From sequence record MH992122.1: 64,000 nt of DNA, one strand, 5' to 3'. Both the position numbers and the translations under genes were made by a program. Numbering within the stretch: the first letter of the stretch is position 1; each line of letters starts with the position of its first letter. The stretch comes from Escherichia phage OLB35. Shown here piece after piece: positions 11,444 to 33,531 of the stretch. The notes under the pieces are model-generated. The model did no database searches. It worked only from the letters and a program-made list of their open reading frames with translations, and was not told where the DNA came from.

Positions 11444-12049
11444 TTAATTTAGTTTTAGTTTTCCAGTCAGAGCCTTTAAAAGAAGAACGTTGAGTTTAGT
11501 AAGTTCATGTCCTTCCGCTTGATGTGAGCCGTTAATGCGTGCTTTCAAAGCAACAATTCTAAGTTTAGATTCGTTAGATAAAGGTTGATTTTTCATCATG
11601 TTCGCCATATGCTTAACACGATTTTCACGTTTTGCTCGGATTTTTAAAATAGTACCATAAACCTTTTTGATTTGGGCCCATTTCTTCTCGTCGAGATTAA
11701 GTTTCTCTACTTTACGGGCAGAAGGATTAGCGATACGTCTTGCAATGGCATCACGTTTCTCAATAAGTTCTTCTAATGTTAAATCAGAACGAGCCGTGTT
11801 ATATTTTTTCTTAACTGGGATAACATTACCTTTAATGTAGCCGATATTGTTATCAAAACGTTCTAAGGATAATTTCTCACCTTCAACAGAGTTATTGAAA
11901 GATTCACCTGAGTAAGCGCAGACCTTTTGATCAAGAATGTTTTTAAGGTAGTTAAAGTCTAAGTTAAAATCCTTAGAGCGTCTCTTCGCAGAAGCTCTGG
12001 TGTGGTCAAGACGACGATTTATTTTGTTAATTTTATTATTTGATAACAT
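11444..12049 (-). CDS. hypothetical protein in srd position
   Basis: 201-aa ORF between dda.1 and modA-like gene; own early promoter upstream; identity with T4 Srd not verified. Confidence 0.45.
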   Translation of the reverse strand: MLSNNKINKINRRLDHTRASAKRRSKDFNLDFNYLKNILDQKVCAYSGESFNNSVEGEKLSLERFDNNIGYIKGNVIPVKKKYNTARSDLTLEELIEKRDAIARRIANPSARKVEKLNLDEKKWAQIKKVYGTILKIRAKRENRVKHMANMMKNQPLSNESKLRIVALKARINGSHQAEGHELTKLNVLLLKALTGKLKLN

Positions 12050-15020: not shown

Positions 15021-15257
15021 TTAACCACTTACTGGTGTAGGGGTAAACATTGCAGCGTTCTTAGTACGCCAATCTGCTGCGTCAGTCACCACAGTAGTGT
15101 AAGCAGCTTTTTCAGACGGGAAAGTCTGATAATGAGAATCTGCAATCCGATGTTCGTTTGAATAAATCTCAAACGGAACAGAAACTTCCATACCTTTAAC
15201 TTCTTTGCCTTCACCAGCAGGATGCGTAAAGGTTTTGATGTTTACATAACCACCCAT
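15021..15257 (-). CDS. soc: small outer capsid protein Soc
   Basis: 78-aa ORF MGGYVNIKTF...HYQTFPSEKAAYTTV... matches T4 Soc; late promoter TATAAATA upstream. Confidence 0.85.
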   Translation of the reverse strand: MGGYVNIKTFTHPAGEGKEVKGMEVSVPFEIYSNEHRIADSHYQTFPSEKAAYTTVVTDAADWRTKNAAMFTPTPVSG

Positions 15258-15380
15258 AATTAACTCCTTTGTTGTTTAATTACAGGTGTATTTATAACTT
15301 AATTAGTAACCATTATCCTGACGTTCAAAGTTGTGTTGGTTTTTCAAGTAGTAAAGTTTAAAGATTTCTTCAGCAGAAAG
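15238..15380. repeat. direct repeat copy A (gene 56 3' end + late promoter + first soc codons)
   Basis: about 143 bp, roughly 95% identical to 15579-15724. Confidence 0.85.
15289..15296 (-). promoter_or_regulatory. late promoter TATAAATA for soc
   Basis: plus-strand tatttata at 15289-15296, about 30 nt upstream of soc ATG. Confidence 0.6.
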
Positions 15381-15598
15381 AGGAGTATTAAATTTCCAGT
15401 GGAGTCTAGTATTATATCCATCAGAGCCGAATGCTTTATTAGCCGGTCTCCCGGCTTTTGCCATGCATAAAAATCAAGTTTCATTTGCAACCCAATCAAC
15501 CATATGTAGATGGTCTGATAATTGACTAACATGCTGAAGCTGATTAGACAGGAGTTTACAAATAAGCTCACTGTTATCATGTTTACATAACCACCCAA
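15344..15598 (-). other. chimeric ORF starting with duplicated soc start (MGGYVN) and reading into the inter-repeat insert
   Basis: 84-aa ORF driven by the duplicated late promoter/RBS; coding status uncertain. Confidence 0.3.
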
Positions 15599-15724
15599 AT
15601 AATCGTAACTCCTTGTTGTTTAATTACAGGTGTATTTATAACTTAATTAGTAACCATTATCCTGACGTTCAAAGTTGTGTTGGTTTTTCAAGTAGTAAAG
15701 TTTAAAGATTTCTTCAGCAGAAAG
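15579..15724. repeat. direct repeat copy B (contains the genuine gene 56 3' end)
   Basis: second copy; carries tatttata at 15633-15640 and an MGGYVN start at 15596-15598. Confidence 0.85.
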
Positions 15725-16168
15725 ACCAAGACCTTGGAACATATTTAGAACGAAATGCAGAATATCAATCATTTCAAATTTAATTTCAAGCTGGTCTTCA
15801 GGAGACAGTTCATCGATACGACGATTTCGATATTCAGCGTGTTGTGCTTTCCATGGCTTCCATACACTGCTAGCGGCTTTTTCACCATTGCTCATACCAC
15901 CAAGTGAAGTCAGCAGTTCACGGAATTCATCATCAATATAATCTTTCTGATTACGCAGCCAATCAACAACATCACCAGCAGTAGCCAATTCATCAGGATG
16001 TTTGTTATGTTCAGGCTTGTCATTTGCCAGACGAACCTGTAAAGATTTCTGCATATCAAGCATTACCTGCAGTGGGTCTTTATCTTCGTGAATCAGAGCA
16101 TTAAAATAAGCTTCTTCTGCTTTATCAACACCAGAAATAAGTTGTGAACATTCATTAAAGTGCGCCAT
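15647..16168 (-). CDS. 56: dCTP pyrophosphatase gp56
   Basis: ORF 15647-16183 trimmed to ATG at 16166-16168 (MAHFNEC...), matches T4 gp56 MazG-like dCTPase. Confidence 0.88.
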   Translation of the reverse strand: MAHFNECSQLISGVDKAEEAYFNALIHEDKDPLQVMLDMQKSLQVRLANDKPEHNKHPDELATAGDVVDWLRNQKDYIDDEFRELLTSLGGMSNGEKAASSVWKPWKAQHAEYRNRRIDELSPEDQLEIKFEMIDILHFVLNMFQGLGLSAEEIFKLYYLKNQHNFERQDNGY

Positions 16169-24748: not shown

Positions 24749-25648
24749 TTATTCCTCGATTACGACATCTTCGTATTTAGGTATATTATACGGCGAAGAA
24801 ATTAAAGCGTTAAAGTAGATGAACTCACCAAGACCTGGATGGAATACTTCTTCAGGATTTTCGAAATATTGAATCTTCGGACGTCCTTTAAGAATTTGAT
24901 AGTACTCAGTTTTAGTTGGTTTAAAAATTCGAATCAGCGCTTCTTCAGGATACTTATTTCTGTCAAAGCTATTATTTGGATCAGTTATATAAAGCGGTTG
25001 ACCTAATTGAATTGCACATTCAACCACTTGTTCAAAATGATAACACGGATCACTAATTCGAAATGGATGAAAAATACCATCTACATGAATAGGAGCCAAA
25101 TCACCTACAAGACGCTGCATGATGGAAGGACGTATAACTTTCTGCGTTACGATAATCTTATTACCATCTGCACCGGCGTTAACCAGCACTTCTTTTTGAC
25201 GTTCATTCAACACAGTAGTTTGAAGTGAACGATTAACTGACAACATATCGGTTTTTAAGAATTCGTCAATATAAAAACGTGGTTTATTAGGGTCTGCCGT
25301 GATATTGAAATTGAATTCTACATCAAAAGCGCCGTCATATCCAGTGATATCTGTTATTAGAAAATCACAATCATAATAAGCAATTAATGAATCAACCACA
25401 AATTCATTTTCAGACCAGAAATATTTACGAGTGTTATACGCGTTATCTTTATACCATAATGGAACAAACTTAAATTCCGGGAAAAGACGTTCACATTCTT
25501 TAATATCAGATGCATTACGTGGATATGTAATCACATCACCTGGATTAGCACGGTGCAAATGAAGTTGGAAGTTGCCGTCCTTAAGGATAGCATACTGTCC
25601 AGTTTCATAAGACCGCATACTCAAGATTGGTACGCGGAAAATAGCCAT
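24749..25648 (-). CDS. hypothetical protein at the T4 beta-gt position (candidate DNA-modifying transferase)
   Basis: 299-aa ORF between uvsX and gene 42; overlaps gene 42 stop; no recognisable T4 Bgt similarity. Confidence 0.5.
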   Translation of the reverse strand: MAIFRVPILSMRSYETGQYAILKDGNFQLHLHRANPGDVITYPRNASDIKECERLFPEFKFVPLWYKDNAYNTRKYFWSENEFVVDSLIAYYDCDFLITDITGYDGAFDVEFNFNITADPNKPRFYIDEFLKTDMLSVNRSLQTTVLNERQKEVLVNAGADGNKIIVTQKVIRPSIMQRLVGDLAPIHVDGIFHPFRISDPCYHFEQVVECAIQLGQPLYITDPNNSFDRNKYPEEALIRIFKPTKTEYYQILKGRPKIQYFENPEEVFHPGLGEFIYFNALISSPYNIPKYEDVVIEE

Positions 25649-26364
25649 TAGTCAAGGAATCCTTTAACATAATCAAAATCACGTTCAAACACATGGGCAC
25701 TTACCATGGTATGAGTATAATCACCAACTTCTACACCGCATTCGTTAGCGATATAATGAAGTAATTTTCCTTGGAGATAAAAATCCAACTGCATAACAAC
25801 AGCACAGTTCTGAGAACGCATATGACAGTGGGTATAAAGCTTACCATCACGAATATAATAAGTTACTGAGTCAGTACATGGATATTCAAGTGTTTCGTCC
25901 GAATCAAGCAAAGCCTGATCAGAACTTTCTAGAATTTGGAACACAACTCTTCGAGAGTTAGGTTTTTCTTTAAGTTCTTTTAGAAGAGTTGGTAATTGGG
26001 CCGCAATGCGAGGACCATAGAAAGTGTTGAAGTTCGCCGGCAAAACATCTGATTTTGGTTTAGAAATAAATTTAGCGACATTAGGATATGCCTTAAACGC
26101 TTCTTCTGCGTTGGTACCACCAGAAATCATAAACTTCCAGAAGTCTTCGGCATATTCATAAGAGATGCGGTTAATACGTGGGTCGGTCATTTTGAATGAT
26201 GATGGAGTGTCAACAACTACTGTCATAGACCCAATTTCATTACAACGTCCAATACGAGAATCAGTTACGAATTCGGGGTTTTCTAAAATTTCACGATTGA
26301 CTGCTTTAAATGCGGTTTGAAAATCTGCGGCTTTGATATATTTCATTGTGTTATGTTTTCCCAT
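25648..26364 (-). CDS. 42: dCMP hydroxymethylase (gp42-like, divergent)
   Basis: 238 aa; ...PCTDSVTYYIRDGKLYTHCHMRSQN... aligns with T4 gp42 CTNTVQYLIRDKKINAVVNMRSND active-site region. Confidence 0.8.
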   Translation of the reverse strand: MGKHNTMKYIKAADFQTAFKAVNREILENPEFVTDSRIGRCNEIGSMTVVVDTPSSFKMTDPRINRISYEYAEDFWKFMISGGTNAEEAFKAYPNVAKFISKPKSDVLPANFNTFYGPRIAAQLPTLLKELKEKPNSRRVVFQILESSDQALLDSDETLEYPCTDSVTYYIRDGKLYTHCHMRSQNCAVVMQLDFYLQGKLLHYIANECGVEVGDYTHTMVSAHVFERDFDYVKGFLD

Positions 26365-26406
26365 GTTTACCTCAATACAATTTATTATATACTCAATTCA
26401 TAAAGC

Positions 26407-26646
26407 TTATTTGAATTTCTTGACAATGTTGATATAACGTAAAGCTTCAGAATCTATACTTCCAAGAACACTATGAAGGAATGCATCAGTGTAGTATTCC
26501 AATTGAACAGGTTCTTTAATCACTTTAGCCGCTTTGGTTTCAAACAGGCCCATAAGGGCCTTTTTAAGAATTTGTTCGTTAGTGTTCAGTTTCATAGTCA
26601 AAATCTCTTCGTTAAGTTTATAATTAAAACTTTTTCTAGAAATCAT
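26407..26646 (-). CDS. hypothetical protein
   Basis: 79-aa ORF; ATG overlaps upstream stop as ATGA (coupling). Confidence 0.45.
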   Translation of the reverse strand: MISRKSFNYKLNEEILTMKLNTNEQILKKALMGLFETKAAKVIKEPVQLEYYTDAFLHSVLGSIDSEALRYINIVKKFK

Positions 26647-26969
26647 TCCGGGTACCTCAAAGCGTCATCAGAGTTAGTTATATCAATAATAGATATGGAG
26701 TTTTCTGCTAACCCGTTTTTAGATAATTGACGTTTATAATACCTTTCACAATATGTACACGTTGACCCACAGATTTCATTAGCACAATCAAAATCTGGAT
26801 GTCTGAACCACCTTTTTTCTAAAAAGCCATCTAACAAAGAGGTTTCAATATTTACTGTATGTGAAAACTCAGTCTCATTTTCAAGAGTGAAAATAGTCTC
26901 TAAAGGCTTCCACAGTTCTAACAAATTACCTTCAAACTTTTCAGAAGCGTATGCTTCAAGAACTTTCAA
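26643..26969 (-). CDS. Cys-cluster segment (CANEICGSTCTYC), probable C-terminal extension of the upstream ORF
   Basis: 108 codons with no ATG at all (only a TTG start); in frame with 26994-27803 across a single TGA. Confidence 0.45.
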   Translation of the reverse strand: MKVLEAYASEKFEGNLLELWKPLETIFTLENETEFSHTVNIETSLLDGFLEKRWFRHPDFDCANEICGSTCTYCERYYKRQLSKNGLAENSISIIDITNSDDALRYPE

Positions 26970-26993
26970 AATGTAGTCTGTGCTACCTGTACG

Positions 26994-27803
26994 TCATGAA
27001 ACTTTGAATTGAGTGATACCAATATCATTATAAAGTTTCAAATCTTGAGGACGAACAAAACGAGTTCTCAGCCAGTTAAATGGGTCTGTATCACGAGCTT
27101 TAATACAGTGCTGCATTGGATATCCATTTAAGGATTTAGCATCATCAGCGGTAACATCAGTACTATGGAAAATATAGCAAGAGACACGATAGCTACAATG
27201 TGTTGTATACCCTTTACCAGCATTAGAACAGAACTCATTTACAAGAACTTCAAATATTATATTGTTCTTATTGCAAAACTCTGCTGCACGCTTCAGGAAA
27301 GAAACTGAACGGTTCTTATGAATTCCGCAACAGACTTTTTTGATGTTATATTGGTCATGCAAGTATTTGATTTGAGTTACAGCATCGACATGTAGAATTG
27401 TTGAAACTTCAATCTCAATATCTTTATTGACTTCACGAACAATTTCCATAACAACAGGGTTAGCGATAGTAATACGCCATACGCCTATTGACCAAAGATA
27501 CTGAACATAATCCTGAATAGCTTTCTTCTTCCACTCAACTAGTTCTCTTTTTGAACCAGGATTTATCGTGTTGAGTGTATAGTTAAAGCAAATACCTAAT
27601 TCGTTACAACGTTTAACGTAGTCTTCTAACATCTTTTTGTCAACGTCAGGAAGCCTAAAATCAGGTCTGGCTGCTACAAAAGCCATTTCTCTTGTAGAGC
27701 CATATACTTCGTTTATCAAGCTATTAGGATAGGTTTTATTGAGCTCTACGATTTTATCAAGAAGAGCTAAATCAAAATTCGTTCCGATTTTAAAAGTATT
27801 CAT
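26994..27803 (-). CDS. Cys-rich enzyme, possibly peptidase-U32-like TIM barrel (family uncertain)
   Basis: 269-aa ORF; ...EVLVNEFCSNAGKGYTTHCSYRVSC... weakly resembles the U32 signature; ends at in-frame TGA 26994-26996. Confidence 0.5.
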   Translation of the reverse strand: MNTFKIGTNFDLALLDKIVELNKTYPNSLINEVYGSTREMAFVAARPDFRLPDVDKKMLEDYVKRCNELGICFNYTLNTINPGSKRELVEWKKKAIQDYVQYLWSIGVWRITIANPVVMEIVREVNKDIEIEVSTILHVDAVTQIKYLHDQYNIKKVCCGIHKNRSVSFLKRAAEFCNKNNIIFEVLVNEFCSNAGKGYTTHCSYRVSCYIFHSTDVTADDAKSLNGYPMQHCIKARDTDPFNWLRTRFVRPQDLKLYNDIGITQFKVS

Positions 27804-27861
27804 TTTTTTGCATCTCGCGTTAATTGATGCGATGGTTTTTTTGCAGGTCTTACTTAAATTA

Positions 27862-28263
27862 TTATAGATTCGGTTTATACGATTTAAATGTTTCGAATTC
27901 GCCTTTATTCATAAGAGCTTTGAATTCGTCAGGACGCATAGCTTTGTCGTCGATAATCCAATCATATACTGGTTTATGTGTTAGCAAATTATGGTACTTC
28001 AAGCCAATGTTTGCCAAGTTCTGAATCAGACTTGGGAGAATGTCAATTGCTATACGACCAGGACCTACTGACTTCATACCGCGAGCAGTGTAAAGCGTTA
28101 TGGTATGCCCTGCATCATACAGGGCATTAATGGCGGTCACCATTTCGACGTCTGGTTTGAAGTTCACATAATCACGATTGTTATTCCACTCTGTTATACA
28201 ATCATCGACATCAAAACAAAGATTAAGCATGTTTTCTACACGGTGCATTAGATTCGTTCCCAT
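27862..28263 (-). CDS. HAD-superfamily phosphatase (sugar-phosphate phosphatase-like)
   Basis: motif I FDVDDCIT, motif II TLYTARG, Lys and WIIDDKA; alternative ATG at 28246-28248 overlaps upstream stop (TAATG). Confidence 0.65.
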   Translation of the reverse strand: MGTNLMHRVENMLNLCFDVDDCITEWNNNRDYVNFKPDVEMVTAINALYDAGHTITLYTARGMKSVGPGRIAIDILPSLIQNLANIGLKYHNLLTHKPVYDWIIDDKAMRPDEFKALMNKGEFETFKSYKPNL

Positions 28264-29933
28264 TGATGAGTGATATCGCCACCGATTGGACGATAGGAAA
28301 CACCAGTTTCTTTATCAGTTAGTACCCATTTACCAGGATTTTTTGTAATCAGAGTAGCCGTTACAGGTTCTGCTACGTCATAACTAATAGAGCCGTCTTG
28401 AAGTACACGGCCCATGTTACGTAATTGCTTAGTTAGAAGTTCCATACCTTTATAATATGCGGCTACCGCTTTAAGTGGATTATTCTTGAAATAACCACCT
28501 AATGCAATCCAGATAATTGCCACTGCCAAATGATGATACTCGTTAAACGAACTCATCTTTCCATATTTGTAAACTAATGGATTGATGTTAATAGTCACAT
28601 TACAAGTTGTTTCATCAATAGTAAACTGGCCCCAGGTCGGATTAGCGTTGAATTCATCATAACCTGAAACAGCATAAAGCACTTTAGCTTCATCATACAA
28701 TTTTGGCCCGTAAATCTTGGTTTCACCAAAATATCCACGAGGGTCGATAAACTTGACTTCGCCGTTATCAGTAATCATAGTATTACTGAAGTTTGGGTCA
28801 CCGTGAATAACAGAGTACTGTCCCTGAGAACGGTTATGATAACGAATAAGGTGTTCTAAAGCTTGTTTCAGCATTGGCTTCAGCCGTCCAATCTTAGTGT
28901 AGTTCACATGTGTGATTTTACCAAATGAATCAATCAATGGTTGAATGCTTTCACAACGATCAATAACTTTCGTATAGAATTCTTTAGTGAAATCACGACG
29001 AACAGTTTCAGGACTTACAAAATAAGTGTCTGTGCTGAATTTCAGTGCATCTAAAATTGCATCAACAATTTGTGGACGAGCAAGACTTGATTTGGATTTA
29101 ATATATTCAAATGCTGGCTTACCTTTAATGCGTTCCATTTCAAAGTTATTTTCATTAACAGAAACTAACTGAGGAACTGAATCTGATTTCACTTTAAGAT
29201 ACCACGAAATCTCATCTTTCTGAAGAGCTCGTCCCTGTTCGGTTAATGCGAATTTAGTTACAGTTTCTTCACCAATTTCAACTGCATTAAAACTACGATT
29301 AAGTTCACGAACTTCATGAGCTTTTTCGAGTTTAGGCATATCACCTAAATCAATTAGATTCATAAGCTCTGATTTATTGAATGCACTGCCGTAAAGGAAT
29401 TCTACGAAATCACGCCCTTTGCAGTATTCATGAATTTCCTCATCAGTAGAACCCATATAGAATTCCCAGTCTTTGAACTGATAAATTCCTACAACATTAC
29501 CGCCTGTTGAACCTACGTTAGTGATATTTTCACCATCGAAATTATATCGACATTCATCACCCTTAACATAGATTGCGTTAACATTCCAAGACCATGAACC
29601 AAAATCAGGAATAATATCACACCAGTTAACAATTACGTTATGGCCATCTAAATCTTTGTATAATTTAGCAAGAGCATAAGCAGAACCATACGCTTCATCA
29701 ACTGTACGAATAGTCACATTGAACCCTTCTTGCTCACAATAAGCTCGAACAGTTTCAACAAATTTTGAATGAACTACTACAATAATTTCATCTGCACCAA
29801 GGTCAGAATAAATTGTATACAAATTGCTCAGAATAGTGTCTTGTTTATAGTTAACAAGCACCTTAGGAATATGGTGCGTTATTGGATACAAACGAGTTGC
29901 CAGTCCAGCACCAAGAATAACAGCTTTTTTCAT
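28248..29933 (-). CDS. bifunctional sugar-1-phosphate nucleotidyltransferase / anomeric sugar kinase (APH-like)
   Basis: 561 aa; N-terminal MKKAVILGAGLATRLYPITHHIPKVLV (NTP-transferase G-x-G-x-R-L); C-terminal ...IHGDPNFSNTMITDNGEVKFIDPRGYFG (kinase catalytic loop). Confidence 0.8.
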   Translation of the reverse strand: MKKAVILGAGLATRLYPITHHIPKVLVNYKQDTILSNLYTIYSDLGADEIIVVVHSKFVETVRAYCEQEGFNVTIRTVDEAYGSAYALAKLYKDLDGHNVIVNWCDIIPDFGSWSWNVNAIYVKGDECRYNFDGENITNVGSTGGNVVGIYQFKDWEFYMGSTDEEIHEYCKGRDFVEFLYGSAFNKSELMNLIDLGDMPKLEKAHEVRELNRSFNAVEIGEETVTKFALTEQGRALQKDEISWYLKVKSDSVPQLVSVNENNFEMERIKGKPAFEYIKSKSSLARPQIVDAILDALKFSTDTYFVSPETVRRDFTKEFYTKVIDRCESIQPLIDSFGKITHVNYTKIGRLKPMLKQALEHLIRYHNRSQGQYSVIHGDPNFSNTMITDNGEVKFIDPRGYFGETKIYGPKLYDEAKVLYAVSGYDEFNANPTWGQFTIDETTCNVTININPLVYKYGKMSSFNEYHHLAVAIIWIALGGYFKNNPLKAVAAYYKGMELLTKQLRNMGRVLQDGSISYDVAEPVTATLITKNPGKWVLTDKETGVSYRPIGGDITHQWERI

Positions 29934-30194
29934 GTTGTGGTCCTCATTGGTAAGTAGGTGTATTGTACACTATTCTAGTTAAAGCATTCATACTTTGCTT
30001 GTAGTCCAATCATAATCCATCCGATTATAAGAGTCGGAATCATTACTGGAGCCGTTAAGCTCCAGTAGATAGTCATGACAAGCATCAATAGTAAAAGTCC
30101 TATTGTTATTGCTTTCATTGCTCGCCTCGTAACATGGCACCTAGTGCACCACCAGGGTGGAACTTAAGGAAGATCATTAGAGGTAAATCCACGT

Positions 30195-30753
30195 TCAGAT
30201 GAAAGGTTGATAGCGAACGTATCGATAAGCGCTAACAACAATGTAGTGGACATGGTCGGAGCTAAAGAGATTCTCGTCGACCTCTACCGCGATGCCTGTA
30301 CAGAAAGAGTAATCAAAAAGGGCTTCATTTTCTTGCGGAATGTCCGGGTTACAATGCAACAGAATCTGTTTAACCTGAGGACGAATCATACGAAGATGTT
30401 TAGCAACACCTATCATTTCTTCGGTCTTACCAGAACGACTAATATGAATCAACACATCATTAGGCGCAATGAATCCTGCATCACCATGAGAATAATGCCC
30501 GGTGTTCAAATACATGCTAGGAATACCCAATGAAGCAAAATGTCTCGGAAGCTTTAGTTGCGATATTAGCGTTCTTACCGACACCTGTAATAATTACACG
30601 ACTTTCATAATTGCTCAGTCCTGGGCGACGAAGAGTTTCAAGAATAGCATTATATCGGGCAGGGTTTTTACTAATTACTTTAGCCATAGTAGCCAAAGAA
30701 GAAGCTTGTTTTACGATTGCGTCAATAGCGATAGTGATTGGTGTAGTTTTCAT
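30195..30753 (-). CDS. SIS-domain sugar-phosphate isomerase (GmhA/KdsD-like), frame broken at a homopolymer
   Basis: ORFs 30517-30753 (...ITGVGKNANIATKASETF) and 30195-30584 (...ASLGIPS...HGDAGFIAPNDVLIHISRSGKTEE) join into one SIS domain if one T is removed from the run at 30537-30540. Confidence 0.65.
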
Positions 30754-30793: not shown

Positions 30794-33531
30794 TCAAAAA
30801 TCAAACATATCGAACAGAGATGCTTTCTTCTCGTAATCGAGTTTAGCTGCTGTTGTGAATCCTTCAAGTGGTTTAATAAATGTCTTCTCAAGGAGAACAG
30901 TATAGTCCATCCAATGAAGTACATCATCTTTGATTAAATCGGTGATTTCCGTACCAGAAGGCCATGCGATACATTTATCACCGAACGGGTTTCCATCACG
31001 TAAAGGCAGAACATATACTTTTTCACCTTCTACAACTTGTGGAGCATCAATATTACCTTTGATAGCTCGGTTATATGTCAGAATTCCACGAATATGGAAC
31101 GGACATTTAGGACCAGGGAATCCACCAACGTCATATTTAGCAATGTTATTCGCAGAAGATACCGCCGCGATGCTAATATAATTCAATTGACGGAATTCTT
31201 TTTCAAACTCTTTAAAATATTCTTGTAATGATTCTTCACCTTCTTGAAGCATACGACGAATACATTCTTTAAGAGCTTTCTGTACTGCTTTAGGGGTCGA
31301 AGATTTCTGAGTCTCTAGACCCATGATTTTGAGTTTAGGCTCAGCGTATCTGGTTCCTTCCATATCCCACACGTTTAATGCATAACGTTTCTTACCAGTC
31401 CAGAATCCACCAATACCTTTAGAACCGAGCGGAGGACCAGCGATAGCTTCTCGGTCCATGAACATTAAGTGTTGTTTATTGTTCATGTATTCGCACATTT
31501 CACGGAAACCTCTATCAATAGCCGGTTCCATACGTTCACGTGCAAACTTATCTAAGAAGTCTACCCAATGGTTGGTATCACGGAATTTAGATTCACCGAC
31601 CTTATCAATAATTTTATCAGCAGATACGTAAATAGAGTCTGTATCACCGTAAAGAACGAAAGCTTCACCTTCTGTACCACAAACTTCGTTCAGATATTCA
31701 TTAACTTTACGTTCAATCCACTGTAAAGCCATTTGCCCAAATGTTGTGATTGCAGTAGCATTACGCAAATCATAATAACGGAACCAAACGTTGCCAAGTG
31801 CACCATAAAGCGAGTTGATGAGCAATTTACGGTTAATTTGTGCAGTCATACCTGCAACTTCAGTACGTTGAGCTCTAAACAACATTTCATTAAGAGATTT
31901 AGCAGACAACTTTTTAATCTTTTCTTTAATCTCATCGCTGAAGTCGAAACGATAATCAACATCTAATGGTTCGTCAACAGAAAGATTAGGATTATGTAAG
32001 GCTTCTTTAATTATTTCACCATTACGTTGAGCTGCAAGCATGTAACCTTTATGTTCTTTACGTTGATTAAAGACCTTAGTGATTTCAGTTGGAACTACAC
32101 CATCACGGTCTTTATAATACATCATGCCGTTAGGAGAGCAACTGTACACATCTGAAGGACGTTCAGCGATTGCGTTAATATAATCATGCAATGGAGCTAC
32201 TTTAAACGTTCCTGCTATTGTTTCTGGGCTAATATTCACTTGGCGAATAATACTTGGATACAGAGATGTAAGGTCGAAACTCATTACATATTTGTATCGA
32301 TTTGGAATAGGTTCCTTAACAAAAGCGCCAGGATAAGGTTGAACCTGGTGAGAACGACCTTGTGGAATCACCTTGTTCTGCTCTTTAAGGCTATTAAAAA
32401 TAATAACATCCCATGTTTTAATTGGGCTAAACACAGATTGAATCTGTATCTTAGCATAATAACCCATGTCCAAACTCAAGTTTATGAACTGGCGTTTAGC
32501 ATCAATTTGCAATACACGATACACGTCGATAATGTTATAAGAAATATATCGTTGGTGATTACTTTCACGAAGTTTAGAAATAGGACCGTCATATTTCAGT
32601 TTACCGACATTCAATTCAAATTCTGAAATGTAATCCAGAGAATACGACGGTTGGTTTGTGAAAGAGAATTTTTTGTAAAGGTCGATATAATCAAGAACAG
32701 AGATACCGAACAATGTAATGATTTCACGAGAACCGTACATGTTTTCAATAACTTTAACACGAGTCTTGCGATACTGCAAAAACCTAGATCATTGTCGGGT
32801 GGTGATAAACGTTTCGCAGTAGATTCGCCAAAAATATTCTTGATTCGGTTATACACATATGGAATATCAAATGACTCAACGTTCCATCCAGTCAAAATGA
32901 CAGGAGTTTTCTGTTGCCAGAAGTTGAGATATTCCATCAACAATTCTTTTTCGTTATCAAACGGCATATAAATGATTTTATCAATAATTTCGGATGGAAC
33001 TTCATCACCACCTTGTTCTTGAAGCTTAGCAGCGATTTCAATAGACCATTCTTCTACATTACCATATGGAGAATTCAATAGATCAAATACGTAGAACCTG
33101 TCGTCAATTGAGTCATAATGGGTGATAGCATCAATCGGATGTTTTGCTTGTGACGGCTCAGGGAACCCATCCGGAGATGTTACTTCGATGTCGAAGTTAG
33201 CCACACGAATTTTTGTATGGTCGTATTTGATTTCATAGTTATAAGTGTCAGACAAATACGCCAATTTGAAATCGTCCATACCTAATGCTTCAAGACCAAT
33301 ATCTTCCATGCGTTTAATCCATTGGGAGGCATCACGCATATTAGCGAACAACTTACGAGTACACGGCTTACCGTAGATATCGAAATATTTAGTAGCCTGA
33401 CTTTCTGGACAATGAGCAAACAATGATGGTTTATATTCTACTTCACGAGTACGTTCACGGCCATTAGAATCGATGTAACGTTCAAAAATTGAATCACCAA
33501 TCTGTTCAACCGTTAAGTAAAATTCTTTCAT
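30794..33531 (-). CDS. 43: DNA polymerase gp43 (family B), two overlapping frames
   Basis: ORF 32611-33531 (MKEFYLTVEQIGDSIFERYIDSNGRERTREVEY..., RB69-type N-terminus) and ORF 30794-32779 (...NMYGSREIITLFGISVLDY...YGDTDS...); frame break near 32771-32799. Confidence 0.9.

Follow-up and report, generated by a model that had tools for sequence, protein, structure and literature searches.

In the coat/A1 system of phage Qbeta, readthrough of a UGA stop into an open in-frame extension is part of gene expression: the stop has been conserved along with the extension, and the phage needs the longer protein. Where UGA is decoded by near-cognate pairing, Trp is inserted, and UGA is also the codon for selenocysteine; when followed by C, it reportedly forms the weakest termination context in E. 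coli. Termination-reinitiation is common in the gene clusters of T-even phages.

The gene that concerns us here belongs to a DNA-modification cluster for arabinosyl-5-hydroxycytosine, the subject of a 2026 article in Nucleic Acids Res (PMC13326640). The steps characterised in that pathway are those of the 5hodCMP synthase gp48, which uses molecular O2, the kinase/uridylyltransferase gp52:53, the phosphatase gp51 and the arabinosyltransferases. For gp50, the same study gives the U32 protein structure 5d88 as best fold match (Table 1 of PMC13326640) and proposes a role that is a structure-based guess only (‘sugar or heterocycle reductase’); no gp50 role beyond this guess was found in the papers searched on the arabinosyl-5hoC pathway. 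The cluster of Acinetobacter phage DLP3, in which polyarabinosylated 5hoC is still made, has no U32 counterpart in that table. Two genes of the cluster, gp46:47 and gp52:53, each appear as two ORFs in the reference record of RB69, a split that was attributed to sequencing errors (PMC13326640).

Several U32 proteins act independently of O2: UbiU/UbiV are hydroxylases that carry Fe-S clusters (PMC6747719) and use prephenate as oxygen donor (PMC10990095), TrhP is also an O2-independent hydroxylase (PMC6599085), and RlhA, likewise O2-independent, is required for 5-hydroxycytidine in 23S rRNA (PMC5727448). The recurrent U32 motif CX6CX15CX3/4C binds a 4Fe-4S cluster (PMC6747719).

We analysed a stretch of 64,000 nt from Escherichia phage OLB35 (MH992122.1; hereafter the window), in which the orthologue of RB69 gp50 is interrupted by an in-frame TGA. 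A reading made from the letters alone (the sequence-only reading) had offered three explanations: the stop could be read through in a programmed manner, it could be a nonsense mutation of recent origin, or it could be an error in base calling. We conclude that the stop is a private lesion of an ordinary kind, in a phage gene that is both known and conserved; very probably it is not programmed and reflects a change from G to T in the first base of GGA, the codon for Gly270. In all relatives the gene is continuous.

RESULTS

Organization of the locus

The upstream ORF (27803..26994, minus strand) starts with ATG, codes for 269 amino acids and ends with a TGA (26996-26994) which is followed by C (TCA TGA CGT). 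Past this stop the frame remains open for another 116 sense codons, up to a TGA at 26645-26643, the whole frame amounting to 386 codons. Mechanical ORF calling places the start of the downstream ORF at a TTG (position 26969) located eight codons (24 nt) past the TGA. No in-frame ATG is present in the downstream part (26643..26993) and no usable Shine-Dalgarno sequence was found for the TTG: the sole AGG upstream of it is 16 nt away, which is too far. The downstream part carries the cluster C340-x4-C345-x3-C349-x2-C352 and ends with a TGA that forms an overlapping ATGA with the start codon of the gene that follows (26646..26407). The sequence-only reading had described a TGA joining two ORFs into a 386-codon frame and followed by C, a downstream ORF with a TTG start but neither an ATG nor a convincing Shine-Dalgarno sequence, a C-x4-C-x3-C-x2-C cluster and ATGA coupling; all of this was confirmed when the sequence was read again. 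It had also interpreted the two ORFs as halves of one 386-codon gene for a Cys-cluster enzyme, and this too proved correct, since the homologues are single proteins. Note that long in-frame extensions past stops exist at many gene junctions in the tightly packed window; it is because of homology, and not because of the shared frame, that the two ORFs can be considered as one gene. For annotation purposes they should be recorded as one disrupted gene (pseudogene or error) and not as two genes. The features of the locus are listed in Table 1.

Table 1. Features of the interrupted gp50 gene and of its neighbours (positions in the window)
Feature	Position	Strand	Remarks or evidence
Single gene, orthologue of RB69 ORF050c/gp50	26643..27803	−	386 codons, interrupted at codon 270; 1161-nt CDS in relatives
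Private TGA at codon 270 (GGA/Gly in relatives), followed by C	26994..26996	−	Codon of relatives, 61-mer matches, homologue alignment
Second private change, GAC to GTC (D207V)	27184	−	61-mer matches, homologue alignment, CCU7 comparison
Fragment specified by the interrupted gene (269 aa; 31.2 kDa), with barrel strands 1–8 only and ending at FKVS	26994..27803	−	AlphaFold2 model of homologue P0002
Part lost past the stop: GRTG loop, last barrel helix and C-terminal module, without start codon or RBS of its own	26643..26993	−	Alignments A1 and A2
Neighbour: RB69 gp55 orthologue, arabinose-5-phosphate isomerase	30753..30115	−	
Neighbour: RB69 gp52:53 orthologue, kinase/nucleotidyltransferase			
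Neighbour: RB69 gp51 orthologue, HAD phosphatase			
Neighbour: RB69 gp48 orthologue, thymidylate-synthase homologue making 5-hydroxy-dCMP			
Neighbour: RB69 gp46:47 orthologue, arabinosyltransferase			

The region is 97.6–99.8% identical to phage records (best 40 of 189 matching). SHSML-52-1 and PhAPEC2, the records for which taxonomy was read, belong to Mosigvirus, i.e. RB69-like T-even phages of Escherichia and Shigella, and judged by this similarity the window is also from a Mosigvirus, an RB69-like T-even phage. One 1161-nt CDS occupies the same position in CCU7, SHSML-52-1, PhAPEC2, CAU_ECP01 and PECP20; it is annotated in relatives as peptidase, U32 or hypothetical, and a note in PhAPEC2 equates it with RB69 ORF050c. 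Synteny with the orthologues of RB69 ORF047c-055c was seen in the relatives.

The arabinosyl-5-hydroxycytosine cluster is complete in the window (24749-30753, minus strand). Its gp46:47 (299 aa) and gp52:53 (561 aa) orthologues are intact single ORFs, in agreement with the published account of the RB69 splits as sequencing errors. Two contigs that also carry the intact 561-aa neighbour are 96.8–97.6% identical to the window; as far as they cover the genes of the polymerase, the isomerase and the U32 protein, none of these is interrupted.

Codon 270 in related phages

Orthologues, to which the sequence-only reading had itself pointed as a check, carry a sense codon at the position of the TGA. 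The codon is GGA in 9 out of 9 related loci that were read directly (these include CCU7, SHSML-52-1, PhAPEC2, CAU_ECP01, PECP20, an IMG/VR contig and the Mosigvirus contig in GCA_012439925.1), and the corresponding glycine is invariant in the 50 homologues aligned (50/50), down to ∼46% identity. A 61-mer centred on the codon was matched by 145 phage records: in the version with T none of the 145 was an exact match, and with G restored the match was exact in 120 of them. The other 25 records differ elsewhere in the 61-mer; the codon was read individually in the nine related loci. Scanning IMG/VR with a pattern having NNN at codon 270 retrieved a single contig, with GGA, and the exact 269-aa truncated product has no match on record.

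When compared over 1161 nt, the window gene and its CCU7 counterpart display two differences only, G270* and D207V, and the proteins are otherwise identical. It appears that the downstream frame is still open, and the protein the same as in CCU7, because the change at codon 270 is either very recent or not real. The D207V change is also private, since none of 140 phage records (0/140) gave an exact 61-mer match; residue 207, which lies between the invariant Cys203 and Cys209, is Asp in 27 out of 29 homologues.

The gp50 protein family

The 120 homologues listed are all single proteins of 336–401 amino acids which cover 84–100% of the 386-aa query. Those from phages of Pectobacterium, Enterobacter, Providencia, Yersinia, Proteus and Shewanella are 76–88% identical to it (in total, T4-like phages of at least eight host genera carry the gene at this level of identity), and many metagenomic homologues are found at 48–58% identity. 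The Pfam profile Peptidase_U32 (PF01136) is matched with 43.2 bits (cut-off 22.4), note that only positions 2–66 of its 233 are aligned; the homologue P0002 matches PHROG 5757 over positions 2–387 of 387 (E = 3e-261). In NCBIfam, the only match is to the UbiU equivalog, with 18 bits versus a cut-off of 440, which places the protein outside the UbiU/UbiV/TrhP/RlhA orthologous groups. A sequence search against the PDB gave no match. The AlphaFold2 model of P0002 (88% identical to the window protein; mean pLDDT 92.8) consists of a TIM barrel and, after it, a C-terminal region made of helices; among PDB structures, Foldseek ranks that of the U32 protein Mk0906 first (5d88; E = 4.6e-8, target TM-score 0.68).

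Conserved residues were identified from two alignments, A1 and A2, made of 30 and 50 sequences drawn from the listed homologues. Gly270 lies within a FK[VI][ST]-G-RTG motif, of which K267, R271 and T272 are invariant too, and G273 is invariant or nearly so. Past the position of the stop, W298, K299, C340, C345, C349 and C352 are invariant. Six further invariant cysteines are located in the barrel (158, 177, 192, 203, 209 and 233), with a spacing, C177-x14-C192-x10-C203-x5-C209-x23-C233, that differs from the recurrent U32 motif. The family thus has ten invariant cysteines, six in the barrel and four in the C-terminal C-x4-C-x3-C-x2-C, a distribution which suggests two metal or Fe-S sites.

In the P0002 model, the strand E266-269 comes directly before G271, which corresponds to G270 in the window gene. 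Translation of the window gene would therefore stop after barrel strand 8 and yield the 31.2-kDa fragment, which, as Gly270 follows the last strand immediately, would end before the invariant GRTG loop and so lack this loop together with the closing helix and the Cys4 module; it would presumably be inactive. Background leakiness at UGA-C would add, at most, a small amount of G270W protein. We infer from this that gp50 function is lost through G270*.

Recoding as an explanation of the in-frame stop

The headline of the sequence-only reading was programmed UGA readthrough, the stop being regulatory and giving a short product together with a low level of the full-length Cys-cluster enzyme. What speaks for it is that the stop is a UGA followed by C, that the frame past it is open and that the second part has no independent start. 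Nevertheless, it was not borne out, the orthologues having a sense codon there, for a glycine without exception, and we regard it as very unlikely. No relative has the stop, neither among the nine loci read nor among the 145 records (no exact 61-mer match), and Trp inserted by near-cognate decoding would replace the invariant Gly270, which argues against a functional product. Moreover, TGA-C is also found at the end of five other, ordinary ORFs among the 108 called in the window. The sequence flanking the stop is identical to that of relatives without the stop, an indication that no dedicated readthrough signal has evolved. The RNA past the stop was found to fold no better than shuffled sequence (z = −0.23), an Rfam search downstream of the stop returned nothing significant, with no SECIS-like hairpin, and no tRNA gene that could provide a suppressor is present within the window. 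Since the stop is private and not conserved, programmed readthrough can be ruled out and, as a recoding signal, the window TGA is without importance.

An arrangement of two genes, with the 108-codon ORF expressed by reinitiation at the TTG and the two fragments assembling afterwards, is even harder to believe. The TTG is indeed only 24 nt past the stop, but no Shine-Dalgarno sequence is found at a workable spacing and the break falls inside the invariant FKxx-G-RTG, with eight residues lost, including G270-G273. The loss of these motif residues, the fact that none of the 120 listed homologues is split and the failure of the 108-aa part to match any family by itself (no NCBIfam family matched) exclude this arrangement. 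Lowest of all in probability, to the point of being negligible, is a recoding of UGA as selenocysteine or a reading under an alternative genetic code. Although the protein is cysteine-rich, its homologues have Gly at position 270 and not Cys or Sec, the downstream region contains neither the hairpin nor an Rfam match, and TGA behaves as a normal stop, being used by 34 out of 108 window ORFs; the glycine of the homologues and the normal use of TGA exclude both versions of this explanation. Among the three options of the sequence-only reading, readthrough thus falls whereas recent nonsense mutation and base-call error both stand; when these two are taken together, it is very likely that the lesion is not a programmed one.

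Other private lesions in the window

Several other genes of the window differ from those of all relatives examined. The gene of DNA polymerase gp43 (33531..30794) contains a 26-nt insertion, CCGACAATGATCTAGGTTTTTGCAGT, at 32798-32773 (minus strand), which shifts the frame, leaves ORFs of 306 and 661 codons and is present in none of the 167 matching phage records (0/167). Its sequence is a piece of gp37, the gene for the distal long tail fibre: 24 of its 26 bases match CCU7 161044-161069. DNA polymerase gp43 is essential. Such an insertion is incompatible with a plaque-forming phage, and it follows that the sequence contains artefacts; the insert is probably of chimeric or assembly origin. We also asked whether ribosomes might bypass the insert as they do in T4 gene 60; on inspection, neither a matching pair of take-off and landing codons nor a stop past the take-off site was seen, and the idea was rejected.

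In the arabinose-5-phosphate isomerase gene, private +1 insertions are present at 30541, 30269 and 30173. None of them is in a homopolymer run; they sum to +3 and leave the gene in pieces. Once they are removed, the gene differs from that of CAU_ECP01 by 15 synonymous and 2 non-synonymous codons. The frame-corrected isomerase being nearly unchanged in protein sequence, the frameshifts must be either very recent or artefacts. With its DNA polymerase gene broken and its isomerase gene frameshifted three times, the window sequence is worth checking against the reads.

Two more private changes were seen elsewhere in the window. A TT insertion at 11480-11481 in a Srd-like gene (ORF 12049..11444) shortens it to 201 codons, versus 248 in four relatives. 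Between soc and the gene of the dCTPase (gp56), the window has a 344-nt insertion (15232-15725) that is absent from four relatives. An exact direct repeat of 113 nt (15269-15381 and 15613-15725) flanks it, and the start of soc occurs a second time at 15573-15597. Two copies of the gp56 3′ end and of the soc 5′ start thus surround ∼190 nt of additional sequence.

Sequence error or genuine allele

Private substitutions were counted over 34 kb aligned with four relatives. The 108 that affect coding sequences comprise 78 synonymous, 29 non-synonymous and 1 nonsense change, the latter at codon 270. This spectrum resembles that of the relatives' own substitutions, and the substitution calls can therefore be considered as sound in general; the possibility of uniformly error-ridden base calls was rejected, for substitutions, on the same ground (78/29/1).

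A genuine, recent loss of function, in which the phage carries G270* (and D207V) and gp50 is accessory and dispensable under the conditions of isolation, has in our estimation somewhat less than an even chance. It is favoured by the natural spectrum of the private substitutions, and by the fact that the two private changes within the gene both look damaging and hit conserved sites with no private synonymous change beside them, a pattern that fits a recently inactivated accessory gene. Furthermore, in published work 5hodCMP synthesis, UDP-arabinose synthesis and arabinosyl transfer were all reconstituted without gp50; as none of the pathway steps characterised so far depends on it, and no U32 counterpart is listed for the DLP3 cluster, loss of gp50 would plausibly be tolerated. 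On the other hand, the gp43 insertion and the triple +1 of the isomerase gene make the small-scale reliability of the sequence doubtful, and the presence of artefacts in the window makes it more likely that the TGA, too, is of this kind. The strong conservation of gp50 in T4-like phages, over at least eight host genera, also argues that the gene matters in nature. On these sequence comparisons, we lean slightly towards a sequence artefact, for which the chances appear a little better than even, over a genuine recent null allele. The other main lesions are indels, whereas that at codon 270 is a substitution; they may have different causes.

DISCUSSION

If the stop is genuine, gp50 is dispensable under the conditions of isolation, and the phage provides a natural knockout with which to find the function of this conserved U32 protein of the arabinosyl-5-hydroxycytosine cluster. 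The C5 hydroxylase of the phage needs O2 and the characterised U32 enzymes do not; gp50 could for that reason give an anaerobic route to 5-hydroxycytosine. It might, by this analogy, be an O2-independent hydroxylase, a conjecture to be read together with the position of the protein outside the UbiU group and its different cysteine spacing. The combined scenario, a genuine stop in a natural gp50-null Mosigvirus whose gp50 would be the conjectured anaerobic route, required in the gut but not in aerated culture, we consider rather unlikely.

The private G-to-T change that we favour sets the locus apart from systems of programmed UGA readthrough. As in the Qbeta coat/A1 case, there is a UGA stop with an open in-frame extension; unlike the Qbeta stop, that of the window occurs in no relative, and the residue it displaces is invariant. 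A further parallel is offered by the split-ORF artefacts of RB69 (gp46:47 and gp52:53), which likewise concern genes of the modification cluster read as two ORFs, with the difference that in the window another gene is broken, and by a substitution. As regards the protein, gp50 has in common with Peptidase U32 (PF01136; Mk0906/5d88) the TIM-barrel fold and an above-threshold profile score, and its conserved cysteines would be consistent with the Fe-S binding shown for UbiU/UbiV (PMC6747719); it differs from this family by an extra C-terminal C-x4-C-x3-C-x2-C module and another cysteine spacing. The nearest relatives remain RB69 ORF050c/gp50 (NP_861740.1) and the orthologues in Mosigvirus, whose annotation reads ‘peptidase’ or ‘peptidase family U32’: the window gene shares with them its length of 1161 nt and its location between the HAD phosphatase (gp51) and ORF049c/5hodCMP synthase (gp48) genes, and differs from the group by the stop at codon 270 and by Val207, both found in the window sequence only.
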